A stretch of 64,000 bases of DNA, from the IMG/VR virus record IMGVR_UViG_3300030390_001781, positions 5,356-69,355 of that record. One strand, given 5' to 3'. The notes beneath the pieces are model-generated. The model did not search any database. It worked only from the letters and a program-made list of their open reading frames with translations, and was not told the DNA's origin. The position numbers were made by a program, and so were the translations under genes. This document shows, piece by piece, positions 4,125 to 56,278 of this stretch (the first letter of the stretch is position 1; the number at the start of each line of letters is the position of its first letter). The DNA comes from a virus.

Positions 4125-4150
4125 CAAGTTAAAAACGAAAGAAAAAGAAA

Positions 4151-4876
4151 ATGGAAAAGTTAGCAAAAGCAGAAGTAAAAAATTTGACAAAAGGTTTACC
4201 TATATCAGGAGTAGTCGAAGTACGTTTAGTTGACCCTAAACGTACGGGTACTATTACCGTAAGAAGTTGTAATCAAGTTGACGATTTTGGTAATCATACT
4301 TGGCGACCATTTGTTGATTCAAATGGAAGTGAGAGAGTAGAAAAGATTACTAGAAAAAGAATATTAAGACTTACTAATGAAAATGATAGACTGTTATACG
4401 GTCAATTAATACATCATCCTCATTATGTTAATAGTCCTACTTCTGTCATAAAGTTGGTTAATTTAGAAGAAGGTGCAGTTGATTTTATTAATAAACGAGA
4501 GTTTAAAAATAAAGCTGAAACTATTATTTCTAAATCATCTGACAAAGAATTGATTTCACTTGTTAGGGTTCTCAAAATTAACATTAAGCCTAATAGTAGT
4601 TTTAATGTTATTAAAAGAGAGATTTATGAATTTATTGATAACTACGATAGCACAAAACGTAAAAGTAATGCAGAGTTATTATTAGAGGAATATAATTCAC
4701 CTGATTACCCTATTAAAGTTCTTTTAAGAAATGCAATAGCACAAAAGACTGTAATTGACTCATTGAATCGAATGATGTTTGGTTCTGTAAACATGGGTAC
4801 TACATTTGAAACTGCTGCAATATTTTTAAAAAACAATAAAGACATTGCAAACGAATTAGAAAAAGCTGTAGAATAA
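4151..4876 (+). CDS. conserved crAss-like protein downstream of MCP
   Basis: 241 aa directly after MCP; C-terminal IFLKNNKDIANELEK pattern; synteny. Confidence 0.55.
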   Translation: MEKLAKAEVKNLTKGLPISGVVEVRLVDPKRTGTITVRSCNQVDDFGNHTWRPFVDSNGSERVEKITRKRILRLTNENDRLLYGQLIHHPHYVNSPTSVIKLVNLEEGAVDFINKREFKNKAETIISKSSDKELISLVRVLKINIKPNSSFNVIKREIYEFIDNYDSTKRKSNAELLLEEYNSPDYPIKVLLRNAIAQKTVIDSLNRMMFGSVNMGTTFETAAIFLKNNKDIANELEKAVE

Positions 4877-21200: not shown

Positions 21201-24200
21201 AGGAAAAAGAAGAAAGAGAAGAAGATAAATTAATTGAGGCTATAAAAAAAGAATCCAATTTTATATCCAAAAGTTATGAAAAGATAAAGATAATAGAAAA
21301 GGACTATGAGAATTCTTTTTTCTTTAAAAGATATAATAAGGAAGATGTAAAGTCTTTAGAAGAAGAAATAAAAGAAGCAAATGAAAGGATTGCATATTAT
21401 AAAGAAGAACAAAAAAAGAGAGCAGGAACTTCTACTACAACTGATACAACTACTGAACAAAAAACAGGAGAAGACGTAGAGGAAGAAACTACACCTACTA
21501 AGAAAAAGAAAATTGATTTAAGTAAATTGACCTCTGTAGATAAAGACCAATTAACACCTCCTGATGATCCTACCAATACTAATCCTAGCAATAATCCTAA
21601 TGGCAATACTCAAACTGATGAGGAAATAGAAAAAGAAACATTAGCAACACAAAAAGCAAACAAAAATGAAAAAACCGCAGATAAAGTTATCCCTAAAATT
21701 AATAACTTACCTAGTGGTGATATAAATTTAGAACAAAGAAAAAATATAACTTCTGAGATTAATGATTCACAAAAAATAATTGATAACAATGAACTTTTTG
21801 AAAACATAAAAGAACATTTTAAAAAAATGTTTCCTAAAATACCTGTTCAATTAGTTGATAAATTATTTAATAAATACGGAGTAGAAATATTAGGTCAAGT
21901 ATCTAAAGACGGAATTACTATTTCAGAAGAAGCTTATCAGAATACCTTAGTACACGAATTTGCACACGTTTATATAGATTTAATAGCAGATAAAGAAATT
22001 GTTAAAAATGCTTTAGAATGGATTAAAACTACAAAGTTTTTTCAATTAGCTAAACAGGCATATCCTAGTTATACAACGGAAAAACAAGCTATGGAAGCTT
22101 TAGTTCAAGCTATGTCTGAAAACTCTATACCTAAGCTTGAAGGTATGTTTTCTAATAGTCAATTAACTAAATGGGGTTCAATTGCTAAAAAGCTTTGGAG
22201 AACAATTAAGAGAATGTTTACTGGTGTTAATAAAAGAAACTATATTGATTTTTTATCAGATAGTTTAATTTATAATAGTAAGCCTATAATGGTTGAAACA
22301 AACTATTTAGAAAACAATGCTCTTGAACAAAGAAAAGCTATAGGGGTTGATGTTGCAAACTTTAATAATAATTTTTTATCTAGAAAAACTAAACAGTTTG
22401 TAATTAATTCTTTATTAAATGAAGATAAAAACATTACAGCCGTTAAGGTGTTATCTAATTTACGTATTGCTTTAATAAGCATAATGAATGATAACGAACA
22501 AACTTTTCCAACAGTAGCTTTAAACGCTAAGTACAATGAGCTAATAGATAGTGATAATAAAGTTATTGGTTACGATGTTAAATATAACGAGCTTTCTGAT
22601 AGTAAAAAAATAAGTGTATTATTAGAACAAACAGTTTATGAGTCAGGAGTTTCTTATTTAGAACATATGGCTTATGTTACAGAGCAGTTAGTTAAATTAC
22701 CTACAGAGGTAAAAGAAGATTTTATAGACGAACAGATAAATAGAGATCAAAATAAAGAAGAAGATACTGGAAAAGTAGAAAAAGAAAATATTAAAGGAGA
22801 TAAAAAGATGACTAGTAGTATCGCTTCTTTAATAGGTACACTAGTTGATTCTGATGGTAAAAAAATACATGAAGATTTAGTTTTTTCATATATAGCAAAA
22901 GTTGCACAAAATAGTGTTACAAATCAAGAAGTTGTTACAAAAATTAAAAATGATTCTAAGAAAGGTAATAATATTGCAAATGCTTTGCTTTCTACTTTAA
23001 TGGCTGCAAAACAATACGATAACAGTCAGAAAACAAATGTTTATCAAACTTTATTAATTGAAGTATTATCACAACAATCTGTAGTTTATAAATCTATTAA
23101 TATAAAAACAGAAAGTACAGGAGATAATAAAGTTGAAGTTTACAAAACAAGTGCTTCAAGAATAAAAGCAAACAGAACAAGAGAGTTTAAAAAAAGAATA
23201 CTTGACCCAAGATTTATATCACAGATTATTACTCGTGTTGGGAAAGGTGGAATGAATATCCAAGAAATAATAAATGAACGAATTAAAACAGGCAAAGGAT
23301 ATTTCTTACATAATCAATTAGGTACTTTTGATGTTCAGCAAGTAGATGCTATTGGAGAGTTATTATTTGGTTTAAACGAAGGAGAATTTGATGCTGTTCA
23401 TTATGTAAATTGGTTAATTAAATCAAAACAAAACGAAACAAGAAATAAAACAACTGGTGATTTAATTATTAGGGCTAGAGAATTAAATACAATTAATAAT
23501 ATTTCAGACCCAAAAGCTAAAAAACAAGCTGCTTCTAATTTCTTTATGGTTGAAATTTTAAACACATTTGGTGAGCAACAACAAAAGAAAAAAAATAAAG
23601 CAAACAAATCTAAAAACACTAGTGATGTTATTATGTCTGGTGGTGCTGTTAGTTCTTTAATGTCATTTGCAGCATTCCAATACGATGGTGATATACATAA
23701 TGCAAATATGTTTATTAACTCTTCAGGTAACTCTATAAGCACAACTAGATTAGGTTCATATTTAAATAGAGCCTTTACTAATATTGCAAAAAAGACAGAA
23801 GAAGCAAAAAAGAAAAACAATAAACAAATTACTGTAGAAGGTTTAGATGGTAGAAATAAAAAAGTGTTTTTGTTTAGAAACAATCCTGTCTTTGCAAAAT
23901 TAATGAATGACGGAATTGTAAATCAATTTATAGACGATGCTGTAAACTACGTAGGGGAAAAAGCAACTGAGCATGGGCAACAAAATGAAATTGATTTACT
24001 AATAACTCAATTAGCTTATTTTGCTACAAATCAAAATCGTGATTCCTACGACCAAAAGTTAATGATTAATGACCGTTCACATTCAAACTGGTTAAGTGTA
24101 AATAGATTAGATGCTAATCAAGCAAATACAGTTTTACTTCAACAAAGAAATGTTGACCAATCATTATTAAATGAAAACTATAAACTTCTTGATAAAGCAG

Positions 24201-27200
24201 GAAAGAAAAAATACTTAGAAGAGTTTAATAAAATTTCTTTAAACTATGCTTATGATGAAAAAGGAAAAGTTAAAGTTATAGCTTTTAAAACTGATTTTAT
24301 TAATAAAAAATTTCCTAGTGATTTTACTAAAAATCAAGTAGAAGGTTTTAACAAAAAAATAAAATCTATAGAGCAAGAGAAAAAAACAATAATTGACACT
24401 TTAAATAAAACAAAATTAACCAAAGCTTTTTCTAAAGACCATGTAGGAAATAAAAAACTTTATACAACTTTAGATAAATTAATAACTGCTTTTACTATTA
24501 ACGATAGAATAAATAGGTTAGCTATTAATGACATTGTTTCAGAACCAATAGCATATAGATTAGTAAAAGGAAAGTATAATAAAAAGAAAGGTAAAACAGT
24601 TTACACAGTAGATTCTTCTAACGTTATTAAGCGTAATAGTGGTTTTGATTCATTAGGAACTAAAGTTAATTTAAGTCATCAAAACACAAATAAAACTGTT
24701 AAGACTATTGTGTTTGAAATGAAAGATGACCAAGGAGAAGATATTTCCAATTCATTTTTATTTAGAGGAAGTCAAATGACTAAAGAAATACAAAAACAAC
24801 TAGGAGAAAGAAAGCTAAATAAAATTGGAGATAACTCTAAAGATGGTGAATACATGATAACTGAAGATGGTAGAAACATTTATCATAAAAACTCTTCTAT
24901 AAACTCTATGGAAAATGAAGAGGGTGAAAACAATCTTATTGCAATGGCAAAAGGTAGTATGGGTGAAAACTACAAAGAAAGTAGATTTTACAAAATGTAT
25001 GAAATGCTTCAAATGTTAGAAGAAGAGTATGGAGATGAATATCACATTCAAGTTATTGATGTAGAGTCAACTAAAGGTTCTAAGTTATACGATACACCTT
25101 CATCTATTGATAATTTATATAAAAACATAAAAGATAAAAATTGGAAAGCAATAGATAAATCTAGTTACATCTATGACAGTGAAAACTTTTACATACCATT
25201 TGATGAAAATAAAAAACTTTCAAAGAAAGAGTTAGCATTTCAAGAAGCAAGATTTGCTACACAGCTTGTAAAAATATTAACAAACTTTACTAATTCTGAT
25301 ATTGCTAAAGAAAACAGTCAAGAGTTAGAACAATTAATGGTTGAATTGCTAGAAGAGCAAATTGGATTAAATGAAAATTCTAATAATTACAAAGACTCTG
25401 TGTTAGGAAATGTTTTATTTCAAACAAATTCTATACTAATAGGTTTAAAAGATTCTATTGACCAATTGCAAGACCCTGATACAATTCAGATGCTTGACGA
25501 AATGATTGCATACAATAAATCAGAAGGTAAAAAACTAGATAAGGCAAGAAAAACAATTAAAAGACTTTCAGAAATTGAAGAAGGTTTAAGTAAGGAACAG
25601 CAAGAAGCTTTAACAAAAGCTGAAGATATTGTTAATAATAAAAAAACAATTAACAAAATTGATCACCCTGCTATGTTGCAACAGCTTAAACAAGTTATTA
25701 TCTCTAAGATAAAATCTAAAGGTGTTGATTTAAGACTTCCAGGTGCTTATTTAAAAATGGTTCCTGATATTGATGGCAGATTAAAAAGTGAAAGTTTAGG
25801 TGATAATGAAAATGAAATATTACTTCCTTGGAGTATGTTTGGAAAAACAAAAGAACAAGCTGAGAAGTTCTTAAAAGAACAAAATGAAAAAGGAGGTGTC
25901 TTTGTTCCTGGTGTTAGAGTTCCTGCGTCAGATGCAATCTCTACGCTTAATGCAAGAGTTGTAGGGTTTATAGATGATGCAAATATGGCTGTTCTTCCAC
26001 ATGGTTTTACAGTAAAATCTGATGCTGACCACGATGGAGATAAAGTGTTTATTTACAGAATGGATTTACAAACTAAAGAAGGTAAGACTGTTATAAAAGA
26101 AAATTCTAAAAAGAATAAGATTTATAATTTGATGAATGAATTAATGCAGACTGATGATTATAAAAAAAGAATTAAAGATGGTAGTATTAATCTTGATGTT
26201 TTTGAAAAGCAAGTAAAAGACATTAATGATGAATTAAAAGATTCAGGTCGAAAAGGTTTAAGAGAAGATTTTAATTTCGGAAGTGCTACTGAAATGAATG
26301 AAACAGATGCTCGTTTATCTTTTGGTGAAAAAGCTGTTGGTATTTTAGCTGTTGCTGGTAAGCTTAATGCTGCTTTGTATCAAGCAGGAGTTGTCTTTAA
26401 AGGTAATCCAAAGGTTACTATAATGGGTCAAGAAATAGATTTAGAAGAGATAGATGCTCCTAAGACTGCAAATGATATTGCAATGCTTTTACAAGCTGCT
26501 TTAGATATATCTAAGAAACCTGTTTTATTAACTGCAGGTATTAATGCAAGTAATATTAATGTTGTTGTAGCAATGCTTATAAGTGGTATTAAATTAAAAA
26601 ATGTTATTAAGTTTATTAACCAAGACAATATTATAGATTTTTATACAACTGATAACACGTCAGATAATTCTTACAACAAAAAGAAAAATAAAGACCAATT
26701 AAAAATTAATTTAAAAGACCGAATAATAAACGAAAAAAATACAGCTATACAAAAAGAGTTAGAAACTTTAATGTATTTTACAGAGTTAGGTAATGAGCTA
26801 AATACAGTAACTTCTATTGCTCAGTTAGATGGTAAAATACCTAATGACGGTTATTTATTAAGAGATGTTAAATCTGCTTTTAATTTAATTAAGAATAAAA
26901 ACAGTAAAACTAAATTAAGATATAATGAGTTAGCTAATAAACCTTTAAATCAACATTATGAAAAATTAGTAGATTTTGCTTTAGATACTTTATCTCATCA
27001 TTTTATTACAGAAAACGAAAGTTATTATAAAGAAATTGAACAAGTAAAGAAAAGTAGAGAAGCTTATGGCGTTAAAGAGTTTGATATGAAAACTGAAAAA
27101 CGTAGAATAGATGATATGTTTGCTTTAATGGTATCTCAAAAATTAGATATTGAAGAAGAAATATCTGCTTTAGAATATGGTGATTCTGATTCTCTACTAA

Positions 27201-28345
27201 TAAGGTTAGCCTCTATGGTTGCTTTTTCTCAAAAAGCTAAATTTCAAAATGTTAGTAATACAGAAAACGTATTACAAAAAAAATACATTAAAGCTCAAAA
27301 AGAATTAGTTCCTCAAGATAATACTTCTCAAAATAATGAACAGTATGAATTAGAAATGGCGTTCCGTAGTCTATCTATGAAAATAGAAGGTTTTAATGAA
27401 ACTTTTGGTAACATGATTTCTAATGAAGTTAAACAAGCAACATGGAATGAAAAAGGACAAACAACAGAAGGTATAACTAAAAAACAATATGTTAAGCAAT
27501 ATATTAAATCATTACAAGACCAAAACTTAGTAATACCTGTAACAGAAAATATGTTACCAAAATTAATAGACGTTGCTATTAAGTATGACGAATATTTAGA
27601 TAGTAATATGTCTGAAATGAATCGTTCTAAAGAAAGTGCTAAAAATAAGTTTTTACAATTACTGCAATTAACAACAGAAACAAATCCTTTAACAGACGTA
27701 GAAGAAAGGATATTAACTGGTAAAAATGATATACGTTATTTAACTACTACAGAAAAAAGATTGGCTAAAGAAGATTTTTTAAAACTTCCTTTAGAAACAC
27801 AAAAAGACTTTAAGGCTTATCAAATGTTAAAGTTTGGTTTAAGTAATAAACTAGGAAGTTTAATCAGTATTATGCCTAGTGATTTTACGGTTGAGTATTT
27901 AAAATATATTTCAAATATTAAATCAGACGGTGTTAAAGAAAATAAAATTTATGAATTAAATGATTTAGAAATTGCTGAAAATTATAATGATTTATATTAC
28001 CCATTAAAAAAGTATAAGAGTGCAAATAAATTAGTTGATAATGAAGGTCAGATATTAAAAGACATTAAAGATGTTAAAGAAAATAATGTTGTTTTCTTAA
28101 AAACTGAGTTAACTAAAAATAATGTAAAAACGTATCAAACAGTAAAAGGTAAACCTGGTGTTAGATTTGAAATTGAAGGAGATTCGAACATTTATGAATT
28201 TCAACAATATAATAAAGATGAAAGCATTGTATCAATAATAGACAAAGATTCAATGGCGAAAAAAACAAATGAATATACTACTTTTAGAACAGAGTCTTTA
28301 TCAGAAGCTAGTGATGTTGCTGATAATTTAGACGAAGCTTGTTAA
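18263..28345 (+). CDS. giant virion RNA polymerase polyprotein (two-barrel RNAP, zincin domain, hydrophobic N-terminal region)
   Basis: RVP...MAVLP...SDADHDGDKVF (DxDGD at 26027-26041); HEFAH at 21953-21967; Gly-rich hydrophobic helices in the first ~450 aa; position matches crAss-like vRNAP. Confidence 0.85.
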   Translation: MGETNNSNNATSENQREINNEEYADAFKSLDENFNIPDIAQSFSDTQEQIDPFNAGIAFQEESPTFTEFDQGVLGDFISGVYNTLIVGSVEGMINLAPTISNAITETEVANNWIDSVSKFAYEFELGYSDDFYKPIEKFDDINATHFTAGLGNGIGFVIGIGKFAKAGQLLSKSGRLIRKGEKLLEGTSKAFKSGAKARNSIDDIVKAIFKKGKTSKLKKVPKFKEGLKGKKRVDMLNKLKKLEQTGESSLKNSARFGSFMGGTTMMYGMVQEEALAAGLDRTDAARFALTVAGVVSLTEGAALEAVGAIPALAAKRQIVKAAAQKSFKGMAGKPPSKILEAFLPKYSNALKAADIAKGVMVESFQEFTQTYIEEGAKQFYDVVFADKDAKVGKGKFGQEVFDLDADSFGDFFLDGEDATRTFTNSVFAGILGGIIGGGMAGLQLNAIGGERNIGNESAFNLIADDVINKKTKNRDKINQALTKAYNDDNISKQDIDATNEILDEMEAFVQKNNLVKQVEDPIAQYQMFNLFKAGKVVESKTKTKEQLEKELQGELDKTIEERLIDQENKNSLFDLISSAININYEEIYRTEKAETKDPDEFNDKVLAYQYLAEQVDGNVFTTEEEVLAELDKIYSSEFKKQYQTIEKTVKEQLEKQEERGDFLNEVEEEEFNEFKDNGNISKKRINYLAQKLKNKKDFNEYEQKMYDAKKSEVEQARDFFIKEEKEAKAEQEKAKEENKFKPNEGERKKEEKGEKEENKEKPFNEEEYKKYLETLTEEQLKEEFDNVVTKSDSNVKEKLDSINKEDTRRIKNKKPTGKTKEEIKAEKEEAKKKAKEKTIKDKINDILNIGKSKKSGKNYSKKSAKDVGQDLFSAVLGAMKSAPNYNSEEAKTLFKEYAKTVHPDKNNQTSEREALATAILSAMTEARDKGRVDVLKKLKELFDTEIAKLPKAEKETKKKEEQKKKEREAKEQEEEQENKEKEEREEDKLIEAIKKESNFISKSYEKIKIIEKDYENSFFFKRYNKEDVKSLEEEIKEANERIAYYKEEQKKRAGTSTTTDTTTEQKTGEDVEEETTPTKKKKIDLSKLTSVDKDQLTPPDDPTNTNPSNNPNGNTQTDEEIEKETLATQKANKNEKTADKVIPKINNLPSGDINLEQRKNITSEINDSQKIIDNNELFENIKEHFKKMFPKIPVQLVDKLFNKYGVEILGQVSKDGITISEEAYQNTLVHEFAHVYIDLIADKEIVKNALEWIKTTKFFQLAKQAYPSYTTEKQAMEALVQAMSENSIPKLEGMFSNSQLTKWGSIAKKLWRTIKRMFTGVNKRNYIDFLSDSLIYNSKPIMVETNYLENNALEQRKAIGVDVANFNNNFLSRKTKQFVINSLLNEDKNITAVKVLSNLRIALISIMNDNEQTFPTVALNAKYNELIDSDNKVIGYDVKYNELSDSKKISVLLEQTVYESGVSYLEHMAYVTEQLVKLPTEVKEDFIDEQINRDQNKEEDTGKVEKENIKGDKKMTSSIASLIGTLVDSDGKKIHEDLVFSYIAKVAQNSVTNQEVVTKIKNDSKKGNNIANALLSTLMAAKQYDNSQKTNVYQTLLIEVLSQQSVVYKSINIKTESTGDNKVEVYKTSASRIKANRTREFKKRILDPRFISQIITRVGKGGMNIQEIINERIKTGKGYFLHNQLGTFDVQQVDAIGELLFGLNEGEFDAVHYVNWLIKSKQNETRNKTTGDLIIRARELNTINNISDPKAKKQAASNFFMVEILNTFGEQQQKKKNKANKSKNTSDVIMSGGAVSSLMSFAAFQYDGDIHNANMFINSSGNSISTTRLGSYLNRAFTNIAKKTEEAKKKNNKQITVEGLDGRNKKVFLFRNNPVFAKLMNDGIVNQFIDDAVNYVGEKATEHGQQNEIDLLITQLAYFATNQNRDSYDQKLMINDRSHSNWLSVNRLDANQANTVLLQQRNVDQSLLNENYKLLDKAGKKKYLEEFNKISLNYAYDEKGKVKVIAFKTDFINKKFPSDFTKNQVEGFNKKIKSIEQEKKTIIDTLNKTKLTKAFSKDHVGNKKLYTTLDKLITAFTINDRINRLAINDIVSEPIAYRLVKGKYNKKKGKTVYTVDSSNVIKRNSGFDSLGTKVNLSHQNTNKTVKTIVFEMKDDQGEDISNSFLFRGSQMTKEIQKQLGERKLNKIGDNSKDGEYMITEDGRNIYHKNSSINSMENEEGENNLIAMAKGSMGENYKESRFYKMYEMLQMLEEEYGDEYHIQVIDVESTKGSKLYDTPSSIDNLYKNIKDKNWKAIDKSSYIYDSENFYIPFDENKKLSKKELAFQEARFATQLVKILTNFTNSDIAKENSQELEQLMVELLEEQIGLNENSNNYKDSVLGNVLFQTNSILIGLKDSIDQLQDPDTIQMLDEMIAYNKSEGKKLDKARKTIKRLSEIEEGLSKEQQEALTKAEDIVNNKKTINKIDHPAMLQQLKQVIISKIKSKGVDLRLPGAYLKMVPDIDGRLKSESLGDNENEILLPWSMFGKTKEQAEKFLKEQNEKGGVFVPGVRVPASDAISTLNARVVGFIDDANMAVLPHGFTVKSDADHDGDKVFIYRMDLQTKEGKTVIKENSKKNKIYNLMNELMQTDDYKKRIKDGSINLDVFEKQVKDINDELKDSGRKGLREDFNFGSATEMNETDARLSFGEKAVGILAVAGKLNAALYQAGVVFKGNPKVTIMGQEIDLEEIDAPKTANDIAMLLQAALDISKKPVLLTAGINASNINVVVAMLISGIKLKNVIKFINQDNIIDFYTTDNTSDNSYNKKKNKDQLKINLKDRIINEKNTAIQKELETLMYFTELGNELNTVTSIAQLDGKIPNDGYLLRDVKSAFNLIKNKNSKTKLRYNELANKPLNQHYEKLVDFALDTLSHHFITENESYYKEIEQVKKSREAYGVKEFDMKTEKRRIDDMFALMVSQKLDIEEEISALEYGDSDSLLIRLASMVAFSQKAKFQNVSNTENVLQKKYIKAQKELVPQDNTSQNNEQYELEMAFRSLSMKIEGFNETFGNMISNEVKQATWNEKGQTTEGITKKQYVKQYIKSLQDQNLVIPVTENMLPKLIDVAIKYDEYLDSNMSEMNRSKESAKNKFLQLLQLTTETNPLTDVEERILTGKNDIRYLTTTEKRLAKEDFLKLPLETQKDFKAYQMLKFGLSNKLGSLISIMPSDFTVEYLKYISNIKSDGVKENKIYELNDLEIAENYNDLYYPLKKYKSANKLVDNEGQILKDIKDVKENNVVFLKTELTKNNVKTYQTVKGKPGVRFEIEGDSNIYEFQQYNKDESIVSIIDKDSMAKKTNEYTTFRTESLSEASDVADNLDEAC

Positions 28346-48054: not shown

Positions 48055-48234
48055 TTAGTTCTCTTTTTTTTTCAAAAACATGAAATAACCTTTGAAATTT
48101 ATTTCACGTTTTTGTTTTAATAATTTTCTTACAGAGTTCCAAAAAGCTTTGATTATTATCGTTACTATAACTGCTTTAAGTTTAGTGTTTTTGCACACTA
48201 ATTGCTGAATTTGCCAATATTTGGATTTTTGCAT
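48055..48234 (-). CDS. short HU/IHF-like protein (59 aa; not in ORF track)
   Basis: MQKSKYWQIQQLVCKNTKLKAVIVTIIIKAFWNSVRKLLKQKREINFKGYFMFLKKKEN*: two helices then INFKGYFMF strand, like HU/IHF. Confidence 0.5.
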   Translation of the reverse strand: MQKSKYWQIQQLVCKNTKLKAVIVTIIIKAFWNSVRKLLKQKREINFKGYFMFLKKKEN

Positions 48235-49582
48235 TTTCTTTAAAATCGCTTATGAATTTAACATACTTACTAACGTAGTTTGCATAAACAGTTCCAACGC
48301 CAGTACTTCTACCCTTTGCAATAATAATCTCAACATCAGTTTCTAACTCAGGTATTCCTCTTTCTTGCATTTCATAATAAGCAGGTCTATATGGAAATAT
48401 AACCATGTCTGCGTCTTGTTCTATTGCACCCGACTCACGTAAATCTGAAAGCATAGGTCTTTTGTTTGGTCTAGCATTAACTTGTCGATTTAACTGACTT
48501 AACGCTATAACTACAATCTTTAACTCTGCTGCAACTTCTTTCAACGACCTAGATATAGAAGCAATTTCTTGCTCTCTGTTACCAGATTTAGACTTAAATG
48601 ATATTAACTGCAAGTAATCTATAATAACTAGCTTAGAACCATGTCTAATGACTTGTTTTCTAATCTGATTAATAATTTTACCTAGTTTTCTTGAAGTATC
48701 ATCTATAAAATAATTTCTAGATTTAAACGTATTTACGGTTTTTTGTACTTGACCTTTATCAATACTATCTAAAGATTTATCTCTAAACTTATACATTTCA
48801 ATACAACTATATGAACTAATTAATCTCTTAGTTAATTCTAAATCTGTCATTTCTAAACTAAAGAAAAGAGGATTAACGTTGTCAAACATGATGTTGTTTT
48901 TAAATATCTCTAATGCAAATGCTGTTTTACCCATTGAAGGTGCGCCAGCTATAATTATTAGATTATTTAAATCAAACTGATAAATAAATGAATCTAAACA
49001 AGGTATGCCACTTCTGACTCCTAGTGAAACTTCACTTTCTAAATCATTAATAAAATTAATCATAGATTTCTCTACGTTAAAATCTTCAACTTCTGCTAAT
49101 TCTTGAATATCTAATAGACTTTTATGTATAGATTGTATAATTTCTATACCGTCTTGACTATCATTACACATTTCGCTAATATTTCTCGATAATGAGAATA
49201 ATTCTCGTCTTTGTGTATAACCATTCAATATTTTAACATGATCTTTTATGTTTTTATCAGTATCAGCTTTATCACATATCATTTCTAAATAACTAATGAG
49301 ATTGATTTCGCTTTTTACATTTGATAAAATGACATATTTTTTTCTAATTAGCATATCTGTAACAGTAGTAATATCTATTTTAGATACTTTACTTAAATCA
49401 GATATAGCAGCATAGATTAATCTTGTTTCAGTAGTTGAAAAGTCTTTCACAGAAACACTATCAGATAATAAATAGTAAGTATCTCCGTAATTAATAAAAG
49501 TGCCTAAAACAGCTTCTTCTATCTCTACATTCGTTTGCCCAATAAAATTCGGTAAGTTGTCAAAACTTAACTGTTCTCCCAT
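48182..49582 (-). CDS. dnaB: replicative DNA helicase DnaB
   Basis: IEEAVLG, IIAGAPSMGKT, FSLEM, IIDYLQLI, ALSQLNR, LSDLRESGAIEQDAD. Confidence 0.95.
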   Translation of the reverse strand: MGEQLSFDNLPNFIGQTNVEIEEAVLGTFINYGDTYYLLSDSVSVKDFSTTETRLIYAAISDLSKVSKIDITTVTDMLIRKKYVILSNVKSEINLISYLEMICDKADTDKNIKDHVKILNGYTQRRELFSLSRNISEMCNDSQDGIEIIQSIHKSLLDIQELAEVEDFNVEKSMINFINDLESEVSLGVRSGIPCLDSFIYQFDLNNLIIIAGAPSMGKTAFALEIFKNNIMFDNVNPLFFSLEMTDLELTKRLISSYSCIEMYKFRDKSLDSIDKGQVQKTVNTFKSRNYFIDDTSRKLGKIINQIRKQVIRHGSKLVIIDYLQLISFKSKSGNREQEIASISRSLKEVAAELKIVVIALSQLNRQVNARPNKRPMLSDLRESGAIEQDADMVIFPYRPAYYEMQERGIPELETDVEIIIAKGRSTGVGTVYANYVSKYVKFISDFKENAKIQILANSAISVQKH

Positions 49583-49603
49583 AATAAATAATGAATTAAA
49601 TAA

Positions 49604-49624
49604 CCAAGCCACAAAGGGAAAACC
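49604..49624 (-). promoter_or_regulatory. motif copy upstream of dnaB
   Basis: + ccaagccacaaagggaaaacc. Confidence 0.65.
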
Positions 49625-49627
49625 AAA

Positions 49628-49792
49628 CTAATGTTCGGTTTCCTTTATGTCTTTACAATTACTTTCAACTGATTTTGAATTTTTCTCACAGTTTTTAATT
49701 TTTACAATTGATACAACTGATATTCCTATAGTTGTTATTGCTATTGTAAAAAGTAGTAGAAATAAATTTCTTCTAAATTTAATCAATTCCAT
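49628..49792 (-). CDS. small membrane protein (54 aa; not in ORF track)
   Basis: MELIKFRRNLFLLLFTIAITTIGISVVSIVKIKNCEK...; overlaps the ThiF stop. Confidence 0.45.
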   Translation of the reverse strand: MELIKFRRNLFLLLFTIAITTIGISVVSIVKIKNCEKNSKSVESNCKDIKETEH

Positions 49793-50529
49793 TGAATACT
49801 TTTTGAAGATAATGTTTCTAATGAAACATAAATACCTTTGTAAATCATTTGTTCTTTTGTTAATAGCTCGTCTAAAAGATTAAGTCCATGACTAGCAAGT
49901 AAAGGATTCATAAACAACTTTTGTTTTGATATAGCTTCTGCTATAGAGCAACTAGGTTCATTTAAATCTTCTTTAGTTTTTAAATAATCTTTAGGAAAAC
50001 CATAACTAGCTGTTTCTGTTTTAACATTTTTTCCAGGAACGTAACTAACATATACTTGTCCGTAATCATAACTGTTACCAAAATCAACAATATAAACACC
50101 TTCTCCGTAATTTATATCTTGTCCTTTTATTTTATGAGAAACATAGTTGTAAACTTGTTTTCTTACTTTCATGTTATCAGGACACAATATAATTACTTGT
50201 GTTTCTTTGATTTTTTTAACATCATATTCATCTTCATAAGCATTCCAATCAAAGCCATAATTTCTGTTAATATTACTAACAATAGTTTTAGCTTTACTTT
50301 CTCCTATTTCATCGTCGTTATATAGTTGTCTTACTGTGTTAGACTCACTTATAACGTCAGGGTCATAAACATTTACATTTATGCCTTGACTATTCATTAC
50401 AACTTCATTATGTACTAAATTTAGTTTTGCTAAACCTTGTAAAACATAAGAACCTGTACCTCCAACGCCTATTAAGTCTATCTTAATAGGCGATAAAGGA
50501 TTAGAGAGAAACCTTTTTGTTAAGTGCAT
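49783..50529 (-). CDS. PRTRC system ThiF family protein (E1-like)
   Basis: IGVGGTGS, YDPDVISESNTVRQ, DFGN, PSCSIAEAISKQKLFMN. Confidence 0.9.
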   Translation of the reverse strand: MHLTKRFLSNPLSPIKIDLIGVGGTGSYVLQGLAKLNLVHNEVVMNSQGINVNVYDPDVISESNTVRQLYNDDEIGESKAKTIVSNINRNYGFDWNAYEDEYDVKKIKETQVIILCPDNMKVRKQVYNYVSHKIKGQDINYGEGVYIVDFGNSYDYGQVYVSYVPGKNVKTETASYGFPKDYLKTKEDLNEPSCSIAEAISKQKLFMNPLLASHGLNLLDELLTKEQMIYKGIYVSLETLSSKSIQWN

Positions 50530-51205
50530 TTAATACGTTTTTAATTTTTTTACCACTATCAATATGATTTTGACTTTGTTCTTTTTCAGTCATTTCATAA
50601 AATAAGTTTGTATCAAATTGTAAACCTGACTGCAAATGATTGTTGAAATTAGAGTTCCAAAATAAATCATGAAGATTAGTTTTAAGCATTCTTAAACTTT
50701 TAAAAACATAATCTCTTCCTTTTAAAGAATTTCCCCAACATATTTTACCATCGTCATAAACATTAGGAGTAGCTAATCTATAAAGTTTAGTTTCTAAATG
50801 TCTAAATTTCTTATAAGCATAAACATAAACTTCATTACCGTCATATACCCAAAAAGTACTAGGACAATAATAAATTTCATTTTTAGTACCCATAGAAATT
50901 ATTCTTTTACTAGGTTTGTCTGTCCACGCTATTAAAGTGTTTTCAGGAGAATTATCTAGCCAAAAAAATGTATTAGGCTTACAGTCTACATTAATTGCAA
51001 TGTTTGTACCTTTTTCAACAACTAAATCTTTTAAGAAATTAATTGTTTTTATGCTAGCAGGCTTACCTACTAGCATTTTACCATTTTTATCTATATCTCT
51101 TACTTCTACATAATCATTACCTTCATTATTATTATAAAAAATCATTGTTTTTTTAGGTAATAAATTTTGTATTGGTTTAAATACAGCGTTTTCTAAATCT
51201 GCCAT
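50501..51205 (-). CDS. PRTRC system protein B (prokaryotic E2 family D)
   Basis: YVEVRDIDKNGKM, TKLYRLATPNVYDDGKICWGN, FWNSNFNNH. Confidence 0.85.
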   Translation of the reverse strand: MADLENAVFKPIQNLLPKKTMIFYNNNEGNDYVEVRDIDKNGKMLVGKPASIKTINFLKDLVVEKGTNIAINVDCKPNTFFWLDNSPENTLIAWTDKPSKRIISMGTKNEIYYCPSTFWVYDGNEVYVYAYKKFRHLETKLYRLATPNVYDDGKICWGNSLKGRDYVFKSLRMLKTNLHDLFWNSNFNNHLQSGLQFDTNLFYEMTEKEQSQNHIDSGKKIKNVLNALNKKVSL

Positions 51206-52203
51206 AAGTAATCTATTAATTTTTTAATGTATTGAACTGTTTTAAATTGTTTTGTAGTATTTACAATTCCATCTAAAGAGTACTCTTTTTTATAAATTAG
51301 TCTTTCAAATTCATAGTTATTCCAGTAGTCGTTTAAATGATGCTCATACTCTTTAAAAATCTCATCATCTTTAGGTAAAAGACACATATAATTTTGAAAA
51401 GGAATAATTTCTTCGTTTTCAATATCTTCTATTTTTGTAACTAAATCAGAGAATTTAAAATCATTACAACTATAACTGTTGTAATGATTAATCATTTTTA
51501 ACATGATTTTTGCTTGAGGACAATGATTAGGATTTTCCATTATGTAATCGTAATGCCAATCATTATTCCCTTTAACAAATTCATTTATACACTGCTGTAA
51601 TTTTTTATCATATTCTGCAATGTAATCAGATTCATTTATTTCTAAATCTAAATCTTCATTTTCATCACTAAGACAGTATTCTAAAGTCATACGAAAAGTA
51701 ACATTAGTATTAATAGTTGGATAGTCATACTTAATAACTAAACTTCCAATTACATACCTTATTATCTTTTTAAGATTTTCGTCTTCTACATTATCAATAC
51801 AATCAAAAGTAAAACAATTGCCAACCTCTGGTTCCTCATGATATAAAATAATTGATTTACCGTCAAAAGTTATATTGTCATAATTGAAATATTCTTTTTC
51901 TGATTTTAATAAATCATTTAAATTAGAGTTTAAAAAGTTGATTAACTGTTCTTGGTTAAAATTTGAAATACATTTTAAGTCTATATCAGTATATTTGTGT
52001 AACACACTTAATAAAGACAATAGAAGATTCTCAATTTTATCAATTCTAAATTTGTCTAATACAGAAATTACAGGGTAAAACGTGAGGTTCCTTTCGGAAC
52101 CTTTATACGTTTTTCTTCTTTTGACTCGTTTAGGATTCTTGAGCACATTTTTGTATGTAACGCATTGTCCAACATAACGCATCTTTTCTTTTCTTTTTTG
52201 CAT
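51193..52203 (-). CDS. PRTRC system protein F-like
   Basis: Between protein C and protein B; basic N-terminus and acidic helical body as in Bacteroidota PRTRC loci. Confidence 0.5.
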   Translation of the reverse strand: MQKRKEKMRYVGQCVTYKNVLKNPKRVKRRKTYKGSERNLTFYPVISVLDKFRIDKIENLLLSLLSVLHKYTDIDLKCISNFNQEQLINFLNSNLNDLLKSEKEYFNYDNITFDGKSIILYHEEPEVGNCFTFDCIDNVEDENLKKIIRYVIGSLVIKYDYPTINTNVTFRMTLEYCLSDENEDLDLEINESDYIAEYDKKLQQCINEFVKGNNDWHYDYIMENPNHCPQAKIMLKMINHYNSYSCNDFKFSDLVTKIEDIENEEIIPFQNYMCLLPKDDEIFKEYEHHLNDYWNNYEFERLIYKKEYSLDGIVNTTKQFKTVQYIKKLIDYLWQI

Positions 52204-52271
52204 ATCTCTAATACTTTTTCAACTACCCTTTTAGGTAATGATTCGTAAACCTTGTTAATTAAACTTTTCAT
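52068..52271 (-). CDS. small basic protein overlapping the protein F start
   Basis: ATGA overlap with protein C stop; 136-nt overlap with the next ORF. Confidence 0.4.
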   Translation of the reverse strand: MKSLINKVYESLPKRVVEKVLEICKKEKKRCVMLDNALHTKMCSRILNESKEEKRIKVPKGTSRFTL

Positions 52272-52474
52272 CCTTTTGTTCCTATTTTAGTTTCAAACGT
52301 ATATTCAATTTTGTTGTTCACTACGTTAGGTTCAGATAAATGAGAGTTTACTAACTCTGGATAAGAGTTTGCATAAAAATCCAAAACTTGTTTTAAAGTA
52401 AAGTTTTGATTAGGATCTGAAAGCATAAGTTCTTTGAACTTAAATACTCTTTCTAGTCTTTCTGTTTTAGCCAT
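52268..52474 (-). CDS. PRTRC system protein C (prokaryotic ubiquitin-like)
   Basis: LERVFKF...LSDP...VLDFYANSYPEL...YTFETKIGTKG. Confidence 0.92.
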   Translation of the reverse strand: MAKTERLERVFKFKELMLSDPNQNFTLKQVLDFYANSYPELVNSHLSEPNVVNNKIEYTFETKIGTKG

Positions 52475-53075
52475 TAAAATTAATTTTTTTGTATCTATCT
52501 TCCATCATTGATTCAATTTGCTCAGGAGTTAATTGTTTAGATTCAATAACTTTAGGCTCTGCTGGTGCTGTGTAAGCTTGTTCTTGAAATAAACCAACAC
52601 TTTTGTTGTTGTCATCAAGTTTTTGCTTACAAGACTTAGCTAAGGAGCTTTCTGAGTCAATCTTTAAAGCTTCATCAATTAACTTTTGTGCTTCTTTAAA
52701 AGATTTTTCTTCAATTAGTTTATCAATACCTTCTAATTTCTTTTTCACTTTTTCGTTAAGAGTTTTTTGTTTTTTCTTCTTCTCTTCTGCCATTTTTGAC
52801 TCTGCTTTCATCTTTTCTGCCGAATTGATAAAATCATTCATGTTGGTTGTTACTTGTGAAATTTTAGGTAATTGATTTTCTAAAGATTTACTTAACTCTT
52901 CTAATACACTTTGAACATCTGTACCTGTAACAATAAACGGTACAATTAACTTCGCACTTTCGTCTGAAGTTTTTGGCTTTGGCAATACTGAAACAGTAAA
53001 TTCATCGCCAATTTTCTTGAATGCTACAACAACATCAATGTTGTCTAGCTTTTCTAAAATTTGTGTAAATATCAT
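52467..53075 (-). CDS. PRTRC system protein E
   Basis: MIFTQI...TVSVLPK...DESAKLIVPFIVTG; TPR-like helices; SVGLF clamp-binding-like motif. Confidence 0.85.
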   Translation of the reverse strand: MIFTQILEKLDNIDVVVAFKKIGDEFTVSVLPKPKTSDESAKLIVPFIVTGTDVQSVLEELSKSLENQLPKISQVTTNMNDFINSAEKMKAESKMAEEKKKKQKTLNEKVKKKLEGIDKLIEEKSFKEAQKLIDEALKIDSESSLAKSCKQKLDDNNKSVGLFQEQAYTAPAEPKVIESKQLTPEQIESMMEDRYKKINFNG

Positions 53076-53090
53076 AGTTTTAAATTTTAA

Positions 53091-53133
53091 TTATCAAGCC
53101 ACAATGGGATATACCCACTGTAGCTTTTGATAA
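53091..53133 (-). promoter_or_regulatory. motif stem-loop upstream of the PRTRC operon
   Basis: + ttatcaagccacaatggg-atata-cccactgtagcttttgataa. Confidence 0.75.
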
Positions 53134-54030
53134 TTAAGCGTAAACTAATTTAGAAATTTCACTAAATGCTTTGTTGTCTAATTTTTGACCTGAACCAATC
53201 ATTTTACTTTCCATTAAATCTTTATTTCCAGGTAAATCTCTATTAGTATAAGAGGTTACTCCTGAAAATAATCCCCATAAAGTTTGACCTTTTTGAGAAG
53301 ATTCTTCAGCAATACGAAGAGTTAAATTCTTTGCTTTGTTTATAGAATTTGTAGAATACTTTTCTCTCGCTTCTTCGCTAGTCATTTCTACATCAACACC
53401 TACTAAGCTTTTGATTAAGCGCTTAATATCGTTAGGTTTAGATTCTATATCATTCATTCTTGTAAAGGTTTCGTAAAGGCTTAATTCTGACTCTTTAAAG
53501 TCATCAATACCAAACATAATAGTGTCTATTTTTTCACGCATAGTTTTAGTATGTCTTACTTTATGAGCTAAATCTCTATAAGCTTTATGAAAAATATTAC
53601 TACAGCTAATAGTTTTGTTAGTCATTCCTAATCCTACTCCTGAACTACCATCATGACTATTTGTTATAGTTATGTATTTATCAATTTGATCGTTGTTAAG
53701 ACCAATATTCTTGATAGAGCCGCTATCAATTTGCATAAATACTTTACGACCATCTTGTAAAGCACCTCCTTTTACAATATCTCCACCTAATTTTGTGGCA
53801 ATTTCGTGAGTTAATTCTGCTAAATCCCAATTCTGAAATATTTCATAACTGTCTTTACAAGTCATAAACTCTTTGTCAATATCTGACCTACGAATAGATA
53901 AATAATTTGATTCAATCCCTTCTCTAGTGAAAAGATTTTCTTTTTTGACTTCCCAAAAAAGATTGTGTTGTTCTAACAAGTCCATTACCATTTGTCCTTT
54001 GTTTTCAACTTCGTTAATTTGATTTTCCAT
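53134..54030 (-). CDS. DUF932 family protein (phage/plasmid-like, TIGR03299)
   Basis: YEIFQN, GALQDGRKVF, TNSHDGS, CSN, RHT, TLWGLFSGVTSY. Confidence 0.88.
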   Translation of the reverse strand: MENQINEVENKGQMVMDLLEQHNLFWEVKKENLFTREGIESNYLSIRRSDIDKEFMTCKDSYEIFQNWDLAELTHEIATKLGGDIVKGGALQDGRKVFMQIDSGSIKNIGLNNDQIDKYITITNSHDGSSGVGLGMTNKTISCSNIFHKAYRDLAHKVRHTKTMREKIDTIMFGIDDFKESELSLYETFTRMNDIESKPNDIKRLIKSLVGVDVEMTSEEAREKYSTNSINKAKNLTLRIAEESSQKGQTLWGLFSGVTSYTNRDLPGNKDLMESKMIGSGQKLDNKAFSEISKLVYA

Positions 54031-54525: not shown

Positions 54526-55386
54526 TTAAAATATATATCTGATTTTATTCCATTTAATAATGCTATCATGAAGTTTTATAAACGATTGAATATAATCACG
54601 TTTTAAATTGTGTTCATATCTAATGTTTGTACCTCCATAGCTAGAAACTTTGCTTTCTTGGTTTTCTGGTGTCCATAACAAACTTTCTCCTTTTTTGTCG
54701 TTTGTAACATTTTTATAATGTTTTTTTTCGTTGTGAGTTAAAAAGATTACTTCGCATTTTACTTGGTCTTTGTAATCAATATAATCATTACAAAGTTGAA
54801 ATAAATACTTATAGTCTTTTAACCAATCAGGATAAACAACAACAGGACTAAAGTTTAAATGAACATCATATCCTGCATCAATAAAAGCGTTTACAGCTTT
54901 TATTCTATCAATAATTTTAGGTGTGCCTGGCTCAAGATAATCTGAAATCTTTTGAGGCATTAAGCTAAATCTAATTCTTACTTTACCATTTGGGTTATAA
55001 TTAATAAACTCAATAGGTATAATTTTAGTGGCTAGAGTAGCCATAGCTATAGGATGATTTTTAAAGAAATCAAAAATCTTTTCCCAATCGTGATACTTTC
55101 TATGCAAAGCAAAATCTTCATTACAAGCTATATCGTATGTCATATAGCTTTCATGAGTTTGATTAGGTTTGCTAGCATTAGCTACAAAGTAAGAATGATT
55201 GTTAATTTCACTTAAAATCTGATTAACGTTTTTAGAAACAGTTAAACCTTTTTCTAAATGTCGTTTCATATAACAATAAGTACAGTCTAATAAACAACCA
55301 TAACCAAAAGAAGGAGTAATATAATCACTACTCCTTCCTGATTCTCTTATTGTCATAGTCTTTCGGTCTACATATCCAACTATCAT
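54526..55386 (-). CDS. spore photoproduct lyase-like radical SAM protein
   Basis: YGCLLDCTYCYM (CxxxCxxC), ATK, RIRFSLMP, RIKAVN..IDAGYDVHLNFSPV. Confidence 0.82.
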   Translation of the reverse strand: MIVGYVDRKTMTIRESGRSSDYITPSFGYGCLLDCTYCYMKRHLEKGLTVSKNVNQILSEINNHSYFVANASKPNQTHESYMTYDIACNEDFALHRKYHDWEKIFDFFKNHPIAMATLATKIIPIEFINYNPNGKVRIRFSLMPQKISDYLEPGTPKIIDRIKAVNAFIDAGYDVHLNFSPVVVYPDWLKDYKYLFQLCNDYIDYKDQVKCEVIFLTHNEKKHYKNVTNDKKGESLLWTPENQESKVSSYGGTNIRYEHNLKRDYIQSFIKLHDSIIKWNKIRYIF

Positions 55387-55981: not shown

Positions 55982-56004
55982 AATTTATTTTTTAAAGTTA
56001 AACA

Positions 56005-56036
56005 TCAAGGCACAACGGGTAATCCCATTGTGCCTT
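56005..56036 (-). promoter_or_regulatory. motif stem-loop
   Basis: + tcaaggcacaacggg-taat-cccattgtgcctt. Confidence 0.75.
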
Positions 56037-56110
56037 AACTGAACTTTAAAAAACTACTAATGCTTAACTAGTAATGCCTTAAATTCTCCATTAGCTTGGA
56101 GAGTTTTATT

Positions 56111-56278
56111 TTAATCTTTTAAAACTTTAAATTCTGTAGATATGTGATCTGAAGAATCTAAAATAATATCTTCATCATGATATCTTTGACTTAAGATAAC
56201 ATTAGCTTCGGCTTCACTATTAGCTTCTACTTCAATAACTTTAGATAAAGTTTCAATTATTTCTACACTAAATTTCAT
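56111..56278 (-). CDS. DpnD/PcfM-like small protein (55 aa; not in ORF track)
   Basis: MKFSVEIIETLSKVIEVEANSEAEANVILSQRYHDEDIILDSSDHISTEFKVLKD*. Confidence 0.65.
   Translation of the reverse strand: MKFSVEIIETLSKVIEVEANSEAEANVILSQRYHDEDIILDSSDHISTEFKVLKD

Follow-up and report, generated by a model that had tools for sequence, protein, structure and literature searches.

Why would a crAss-like phage carry a ubiquitin-like conjugation operon among its replication genes, and is such an operon a pathway of the phage's own making? The question is raised by a window of 64,000 nucleotides that comprises bases 5356–69355 of the 69,355-bp virus record IMGVR_UViG_3300030390_001781 (IMG/VR), rated as complete by CheckV; all coordinates below are those of the window. 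The source is a marine, uncultured crAss-like phage, and the operon is related to PRTRC (ParB-related ThiF-related cassette), or operon type 6d. Our results point to a real and intact cassette of a Bacteroidota-type variant of PRTRC, which has neither the JAB protease (protein A) nor ParB and is seated in the replication module of the phage. We estimate a probability of roughly 0.6 that the cassette performs active conjugation of its ubiquitin-like protein (Ubl), with the E2-like protein and the protein at the F position as recognition parts.

An earlier note, made from the sequence alone, had described five coupled genes at 49783–53075 on the minus strand, named E, C, F, B and ThiF. All five are found there, on that strand, and neighbouring genes overlap by 8 nt (E/C), 13 nt (F/B) and 29 nt (B/ThiF). 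Searches with hidden Markov models (HMMs) assigned four of the five to their families. Protein E (202 aa, 52467–53075) matches PF19556 (PRTRC_E) with 55.5 bits, compared to a gathering threshold (GA) of 26. The ubiquitin-like protein C (68 aa, 52268–52474) matches Prok_Ub with 80.6 bits and TIGR03738 with 67.7 bits (cut-off 45.95), the E2-like protein B (234 aa, 50501–51205) matches the Pfam family Prok-E2_D with 52.9 bits (GA 25), and the ThiF-type E1 (248 aa, 49783–50529) matches TIGR03736 with 168.6 bits (cut-off 144.75). The fifth gene, which encodes the 336-aa F-position protein (51193–52203), matched no HMM. Moreover, the description as a five-gene operon overlooked a sixth conserved gene, an unannotated open reading frame (ORF) of 67 codons (ORF67, 52068–52271) that fills the gap between C and F. 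All six genes are on the minus strand.

The motifs on which the earlier note had relied are also present: protein C ends in ETKIGTKG followed by a stop, protein B contains NVYDDGKICWGN, ThiF contains GVGGTGS and EPSCS, and protein E contains KSVGLFQ. The Ubl has this same ending and stop in 8 of 8 phage copies, with the codon of Gly68 at 52271–52273, and is probably translated in mature form with a free C-terminal glycine. In protein B, the predicted catalytic Cys156 (50738–50740, in ..GKICWGN..) and the downstream His190 (50636–50638) are invariant among the aligned E2 proteins, even though protein B of Ralstonia phage Dina (NC_055026), one of those aligned, is only 20% identical. A cysteine with a downstream histidine is also described for the E2 of operon type 6d in the 2006 catalogue (Iyer, Burroughs, Aravind 2006; PMC1779556). 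The most variable segment of the E2 (residues 161–180) lies immediately past the catalytic cysteine loop. ThiF shares with Dina ThiF the GxGGxG motif (residues 21–26), D56, D58, N64, R67, Q68, K79, D118 and P192-S193-C194, where Cys194 is encoded at 49948–49950, and over residues 8–129 the E1 profile matches human UBA6 and yeast UBA1 in their active adenylation domain (E 2.8e-9). The description of a crAss-like phage with an E1/E2/Ubl cassette related to PRTRC, with catalytic and adenylation residues intact, stands.

The absence of the JAB protease, ParB and protein D, noticed previously for the window, holds for the whole 69,355-bp record, which gave no match to TIGR03735 or PF14464 (JAB protein A), to PF02195 (ParB) or to TIGR03739 (protein D). 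In control searches PF14464 rang in 11 of 14 genomes and TIGR03735 in none, so the TIGR03735 search alone is weak; in addition, the 29-nt overlap of B and ThiF leaves no room for a gene between them. The earlier note had inferred that the phage adopted a 'minimal' pathway. This inference does not survive a comparison with bacteria, where the five-gene form without JAB and ParB is the usual form in Bacteroidota. A scan with the ThiF profile over one genome per prokaryotic species yielded 18 loci, comprising 12 labelled as Bacteroidota, four from Ralstonia, one from Desulfocapsa and one on a short contig of a metagenome-assembled genome labelled as Lachnospiraceae. Their identity to the window ThiF was 29–37%, and the Bacteroidota group was closest (33–36%). 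Six of the 18 loci were annotated with NCBIfam, while the other 12 were judged by ORF sizes, without HMM confirmation. All four HMM-annotated Bacteroidota loci (L007, L010, L012 and L023) have the order E, C, an unmatched protein, B and ThiF, without protein A. B abuts ThiF in three of these four, whereas L012 has a gap of ~440 nt with a 72-aa ORF. Of the other two annotated loci, one from Ralstonia (L018) has a canonical F and protein A, and the one from Desulfocapsa (L016) is without A; the ORF sizes in the 12 further loci fit the same two patterns.

The same layout is annotated by RefSeq, again without JAB, on plasmids of Parabacteroides distasonis (NZ_OY725769.1) and Tunicatimonas pelagia. 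Carriers in Bacteroidota further include conjugative transposons, as judged from neighbours such as topoisomerase, DUF3945, DUF4099 and DUF4121 (L007) or TraM, TraO and DUF4138 (L023). The phage thus carries the variant that is normal in Bacteroidota, and not a version that was reduced in phages. The window cassette has this layout throughout, with E, C, an F-position protein of ~340–390 aa, B and ThiF, and with B abutting ThiF. In our searches we found no published name for the variant. The Bacteroidota cassettes of Bacteroides stercorirosoris (L007) and P. distasonis share with the window the five-gene order, a homologous F-position protein, a Ubl that stops after glycine, and a small ORF over the F start. 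They differ in their conjugative or plasmid carrier, in E, which often far exceeds the window protein in length (up to 362 aa), and in the small ORF, which has 45–77 aa and is only weakly similar.

The canonical PRTRC cassette (TIGR03734–03742), as found on pPNAP01 of Polaromonas naphthalenivorans, has the same E-C-F-B-ThiF order, with homologous E, Ubl (..G.KG), E2 with a cysteine and downstream histidine, and E1. It differs in its ParB upstream, its JAB protein A between B and ThiF and its TIGR03742-type F, all three of which the window lacks; RefSeq annotates the full series ParB-E-C-F-B-A-ThiF on this plasmid. Because four defining parts are absent, the window cassette is not a full member of canonical PRTRC, although as far as its sequence tells it would work like one. 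A further difference concerns the Ubl. In three Ralstonia loci (L018, L019 and L021) and in phage Dina (L002) the Ubl runs on for 62–66 codons past ..G[TR]KG and stops 4 nt into F; this extension occurs in cassettes that contain JAB, and therefore a Ubl precursor is probably made there. We considered whether JAB is dispensable where the Ubl is made mature. This idea would fit the Ralstonia and Dina precursors, but it fails on pPNAP01, which combines JAB with a Ubl that ends in AVGAKG followed by a stop.

Is the 336-aa protein the F of PRTRC, as its earlier label implied? Neither the window protein nor any of seven members of its family matched TIGR03742 (PRTRC_F), even at E up to 1, while the model itself works, giving 204–353 bits for the canonical F of Dina and Ralstonia. 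BLASTP against Dina F gave E 0.82 and hhalign against canonical F proteins gave 0.2%, which led us to reject the label; the hhalign comparison set a joint profile of 14 sequences against a profile of only five close sequences, and remote homology is possible. Conversely, the profile of the phage F-position proteins aligned with the unnamed protein of ~370–390 aa at the same place in Bacteroidota cassettes (hhalign 96.4%, E 1.4e-9, 286 columns). Hence, the F-position protein most likely represents a separate family, homologous to the protein at the Bacteroidota F position and matching the canonical F by position alone. It is mainly helical with a basic, disordered N-terminus (residues 1–55), and was predicted by AlphaFold (AF2) with a local distance difference test score (pLDDT) of 75.5. 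Its start is real, as N-terminal motifs (MQK..VGQ..ER.NTF) are kept in relatives at 25–28% identity. The family is sparsely represented, with just five relatives in a HMMER pass over 1.84 billion representative proteins and no match in Pfam, NCBIfam or PHROGs. Fold searches were little more productive: the best PDB match had Z 4.4 (VIA wide), BFVD returned one uncharacterised phage protein (E 5e-8), and the ESM Atlas gave no usable match.

The start codon of ORF67 overlaps the stop of the Ubl gene (ATGA); at the other end, the final 136 nt of ORF67 are shared with the beginning of the F-position gene, which is read in a different frame. ORF67 is open in all 10 distinct phage sequences, with the same length of 67 codons and the same stop position, in a region that is purine-rich and has few stop codons in all frames. 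Within the overlap, the ORF67 frame has a ratio of non-synonymous to synonymous polymorphism (pN/pS) of 0.36 among the phage sequences, whereas the ratio is 1.17 for the F frame and 0.78 for the third frame; nucleotide diversity is 0.167, compared to 0.305 and 0.331 in the flanks. All 12 Bacteroidota loci examined have an ORF of 45–77 codons at the same place and in the same frame relation, as does pPNAP01. In two bacterial groups the frame of the small ORF is again the most constrained (0.55 versus 0.78, and 0.51 versus 1.31). We read ORF67 as a probable overprinted small gene, laid over the disordered N-terminus of the F-position protein. It has no family match, and the phage and bacterial small ORFs are weakly similar at 11–25% identity, which F-frame homology could produce as a by-product. 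For annotation ORF67 is relevant because both RefSeq-annotated cassettes that we inspected call no gene at that position.

Two other interpretations of this region were rejected. That ORF67 is the counterpart of the Ubl extension in Ralstonia, split in one case and fused in the other, is unsupported (hhalign 0.1%). Translation of F by a −1 frameshift from ORF67 would fit the frames, but no canonical slippery heptamer was seen, and F has its own position-conserved ATG in all copies. The overlap of ORF67 and F also contains a GAAA loop closed by a perfect stem of 8 bp (sense strand: GGTTCC GAAA GGAACC; 52084–52103), and at least 5 bp of this stem are kept in the most divergent relative. This stem could be an RNA element or a mere consequence of double coding.

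The cassette is shared by a group of related phages. We found six viral and eleven metagenome loci, several of which are the same contig in two collections, with E2 identities of 59–78%; all derive from IMG/VR or carry a marine, Tara or JGI label. The 13 related loci compared are collinear as far as each reaches, in the order DUF932, E, C, ORF67, F, B, ThiF, DnaB and Sak4, and in all 13 the junction of B and ThiF is without an intervening gene. Pooled over the window and seven loci, pN/pS was 0.12 for Sak4, 0.15 for C, 0.20 for ThiF, 0.23 for E, 0.26 for DUF932, 0.43 for B, 0.49 for ORF67 and 0.52 for F; DnaB, whose set contained one wrong coordinate, was left out. Every cassette gene is thus under purifying selection (0.15–0.52), with a non-synonymous rate in F and B that is at least double that of C, ThiF and E. 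The window, whole or in part, was recovered in 20 listed runs of 10 marine-sample studies; four of these runs may be the source sample. Two metatranscriptome libraries contain contigs that are at least 99% identical to it, at 52270–52985 (library X19, covering C and E) and at 51413–51570 and 52508–52658 (library X23), so that together they cover E, C and part of F; a lack of contigs over the other parts of the cassette in these two libraries is uninformative. Three other RNA libraries (X21, X22 and X24) contain next to none of the stretch.

Gene content, families, conserved catalytic residues, synteny, purifying selection and relative rates are direct observations. From them we infer the following scheme, in which every biochemical step, the target, and the parts played by F, E and ORF67 are conditional. 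A cassette of the Bacteroidota-type variant would have been taken up into the phage replication module. The 68-aa Ubl would be made with its C-terminal glycine free, and the ThiF-type E1 would adenylate it and load it onto Cys194. From there the Ubl would be handed to Cys156 of the E2-like protein, which would join it to a lysine of one or more targets. Target recognition is the likely task of the E2 and the F-position protein, both of which evolve fast, and E may serve as an adaptor that brings the machinery to the host sliding clamp through its ..GLF peptide. Without JAB, the cassette itself would not reverse the tagging.

The role of E deserves closer attention, as the earlier note had pointed out a clamp-binding-like motif in this protein. 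The LF peptide is indeed conserved and resembles the clamp-binding consensus, which is QL[S/D]LF, with QLGLF in E. coli Pol II (PMC3716654). Protein E consists of a small N-terminal alpha/beta domain and a long Lys/Glu-rich helix, followed by the ..GLF peptide (residues 159–163, bases 52587–52601). Its mean AF2 pLDDT is 67, and residues 162–181 form the sole long segment of low confidence (<50), with L162 at its start. The tails of E proteins are poorly conserved except for this short peptide, which reads KSVGLFQ in the window, EGSLFG in Bacteroides, GGLFG in Prevotella, QGSLLF in Sphingobacterium and RQMSLV in Ralstonia. At least 90% of a set of 16 E proteins share L162; in a set of 12 sequences the leucine is invariant and the phenylalanine is kept in at least 90%. 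Furthermore, a clamp gene (dnaN) lies in or beside the cassette in two bacterial loci. In Sphingobacterium mizutaii (L012) a second, divergent dnaN is located between the Ubl and F-position genes (3326–4420) and is 33–37% identical to the nearest other clamps, and in Desulfocapsa (L016) dnaN precedes the cassette and recJ follows it. The lack of a detectable clamp, polymerase or primase in the phage record points the same way. Clamp docking by E is a tentative suggestion, for which we would put the odds clearly below even. A bolder extension would make PRTRC the prokaryotic counterpart of clamp-centred ubiquitin signalling, of which the ubiquitination of PCNA is the eukaryotic example. Here, E would tether the machine to the beta clamp and the Ubl would be attached to the clamp or to clamp-bound replisome proteins; the incoming element would thereby take over or re-programme the host replisome, with the overprinted gene of 45–77 aa as a further component. 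We consider this extension improbable.

Several points weigh against the conjugation scheme and its clamp component. Protein B falls under the NCBIfam cut-off of TIGR03737 (41 versus 131 bits), as a divergent member, and protein E under that of TIGR03741 (32.2 versus 37.95 bits). Cys194 is the putative catalytic residue of the E1 by its invariance, as the alignment with solved E1 structures ends at residue 129. The F-position protein is without a known fold or catalytic motif, and Foldseek against the PDB gave no match at E up to 0.001. The metatranscriptome contigs are a weak hint of expression, and RNA libraries can carry DNA. The peptide SVGLF is without the conserved glutamine and matches three of five consensus positions, with G-L-F common to Pol II, and the linkage to dnaN is limited to two of the 18 bacterial loci. 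Finally, in the literature searched, we found no biochemical study of any PRTRC system.

Active conjugation directed by the E2 and the F-position protein can be compared with four other explanations. The earlier note had named host defence or replication proteins as possible targets. The most durable alternative is its counter-defence idea, in which tagging with the Ubl would inactivate or mislocalise host immune proteins, and a fast-evolving E2 and F would track changing targets. This would be in agreement with the rate of E2 and F, at least twofold higher than in the rest of the cassette, with the peak of E2 variability past the catalytic cysteine, and with the characterised E1/E2/Ubl systems, Bil and CBASS, which act in phage-host conflict (PMC11601596). 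Yet, in every relative the cassette lies among the replication genes, with DUF932 on one side and DnaB on the other. Moreover, conjugative transposons and plasmids have the cassette too, and there is no linked defence gene and no known target. We therefore regard counter-defence as unlikely.

Less likely still is the exclusion of competitors, by a Bil-like tagging of proteins from further phages or mobile elements that arrive in an occupied cell, to the benefit of the resident element. Fast-evolving recognition parts would suit this role, as would the spread of the cassette over phages, prophages, conjugative transposons and plasmids. However, a lytic phage gains little from it, and neither an integrase in the family scans nor any sign of lysogeny turned up; the tight link to DUF932 and DnaB would also be left unexplained. 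A third alternative is sulfur-carrier chemistry without conjugation, where ThiF only adenylates or thiocarboxylates a small beta-grasp protein for cofactor or nucleoside modification, as in ThiF-ThiS and MoeB-MoaD. The ThiF protein does give weak matches to ThiF/MoeB models (25–30 bits), and related crAss phage genes are annotated as 'thiamine biosynthesis protein'. These scores are far under the cut-offs, however, an E2-fold protein with invariant cysteine and histidine is always present, and the family scans showed no linked rhodanese, cysteine desulfurase or cofactor gene, which makes this chemistry a poor candidate. A functionless passenger, that is, a recently captured and decaying piece of a Bacteroidota mobile element, is already disfavoured and scarcely credible: its nearest cellular relatives do reside on such elements and JAB, ParB and protein D are missing, but the bacterial version is without the same genes too, all six ORFs are intact in each related phage locus that covers them, and pN/pS is 0.15–0.52 across eight phages with up to 50% divergence in protein F.

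The conjugation reading also has to be placed among what is known from other phages. According to the earlier note, PRTRC systems are mostly described on plasmids and integrative conjugative elements. They do occur on such elements, but they are known in phages as well. A search with the Ubl over 50,697 GenBank phage records retrieved five (Dina twice, YO105_4, BgVeeders33 and one faecal fragment), and a search with the E2 retrieved one record. For Dina, RefSeq annotates E-C-F-B-A-ThiF as PRTRC. Dina, YO105_4 and Burkholderia phage BgVeeders33 are likewise phages with E-C-F-B-ThiF, and their ThiF proteins are 28–29% identical to that of the window. They differ from the window phage in being proteobacterial, of a small temperate type, and in having JAB protein A, a canonical F and a Ubl with a C-terminal extension of 62–66 aa. 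In print, a Burkholderia gladioli prophage carries the cassette, with its function not studied according to a 2026 paper (PMC13366799). A 2026 bioRxiv preprint reports that mutations recur in PRTRC protein B of a Phocaeicola vulgatus prophage, a hotspot linked to a diversity-generating retroelement, which fits the E2 as a recognition module.

Among the named bacterial systems, Bil (BilABCD) and type II CBASS with Cap2/Cap3 also combine E1 and E2 proteins with catalytic cysteines, and Bil has a Ubl as well (PMC11601596). In Bil, however, a JAB is present and the large E1 contains adenylation domains in tandem, and Cap2 is an E2-E1 fusion; the window instead encodes a separate E2 and a single-domain E1 of 248 aa. 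Its lack of JAB and its single ThiF domain place it outside Bil. Moreover, Bil and CBASS are host defence systems rather than phage genes. The Bub operons ('6E', DUF6527) are a sister class from the same 2006 catalogue, for which the biochemistry also came only years later. The Bub E1 and E2 are without catalytic cysteines and form oxyester intermediates, whereas both Cys156 and Cys194 are conserved in the window; family scans of the window gave no DUF6527 match. Finally, crAss001-like gut phages also have an E1-like gene among their replication genes, which in crAss001 is gp76, next to gp77, a weak JAB-like metalloprotease (20.4 bits, under a GA of 25). Here, the ThiF domain is the C-terminal half of a 383-aa protein, ~25% identical to that of the window, and the flanks of gp76-gp77 contain no annotated Prok_Ub, Prok-E2_D or PRTRC_E gene, with no Pfam match for the two neighbours scanned. 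This is a different system.

The crAss-like identity of the phage was confirmed by Pfam matches to Crass_capsid (177.9 bits), CrAss_Ring_1, CrAss_Ring_2 and the muzzle protein crAss_MUZ (319 bits). Its capsid protein is 25–29% identical to crAss-like phage capsids, which makes it a distant member. The cassette lies inside the replication and early module, a minus-strand block from ~42 kb onward with genes for DnaJ, YopX, a PD-(D/E)XK exonuclease, a NinB-like protein, Sak4, DnaB, DUF932, an SPL-like radical SAM protein and a DpnD/PcfM-like protein. In line with the earlier note, HMMs identified the neighbours on both sides, each on the minus strand. Directly upstream is the DUF932 protein (298 aa, 53134–54030; PF06067 78.1 bits, TIGR03299 73.2 bits), which adjoins the cassette in 10 of 13 related loci, while the other three end before reaching it. 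Directly downstream is the DnaB-family replicative helicase (48182–49612; TIGR00665 328 bits, DnaB_C 263.9 bits). Between ThiF and DnaB lies a hydrophobic ORF of 54 aa (49628–49792, minus strand) that overlaps the end of ThiF by 10 nt. It has no family match, and is weakly and patchily conserved, with tblastn matches over part or all of its length in 6 of 13 related loci (35–88% identity).

The spacer between DUF932 and E contains an inverted repeat at ~53091–53130, identified by sequence inspection, with its arms located by a pattern search. The earlier note had seen an early motif here. The repeat exists, and one related hairpin, listed as terminator-like, is found at 56004–56039, but a repeated promoter motif could not be demonstrated in two pattern searches. 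Both hairpins lie in spacers of the minus-strand early operon and have ..TTGTG[GC]CTTGAT in common; they may be terminators, processing sites or operators. A scan for sigma-70 promoters was uninformative, with 52 sites compared to 52.3 expected.

A polymerase gene is usual in crAss-like phages. Pfam and PHROGs revealed no polymerase, primase, clamp or integrase family in the 69-kb record, where unrecognised genes may exist; the Pfam scan for polymerase, primase and clamp took non-overlapping ORFs by greedy choice, with a minimum length of 70 aa in the window and 60 aa in the first 5.4 kb of the record. The DnaN model TIGR00663 had no match anywhere in the record. Genes for DnaB, Sak4, a NinB-like protein and an exonuclease are present in this phage. 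The spore-photoproduct-lyase (SPL)-like radical SAM protein (54526–55386; PF20903 86.6 bits) is encoded by one of the genes that are most conserved in the relatives, with 93–97% identity where covered. The DpnD/PcfM-like protein is encoded at 56111–56278, in the early region alongside DUF932. Elsewhere, a 3360-aa ORF at 18263–28345 has no Pfam or PHROG match; by its size and place it might be a crAss-type virion RNA polymerase or a cargo protein.

In conclusion, the cassette is real but not unprecedented, as its type is already annotated in public genomes. What our analysis adds is the sixth gene, ORF67, the rate difference that sets E2 and F apart, and the conserved ..GLF peptide in E, which together with two dnaN-carrying bacterial cassettes hints at clamp docking. 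PRTRC (type 6d) has been catalogued since 2006, and its sister classes CBASS, Bil and Bub have each proved mechanistically informative. A six-gene cassette in a phage that seemingly depends on the host replisome, with a fast-evolving E2 and partner and a possible clamp adaptor, narrows the search for its target.

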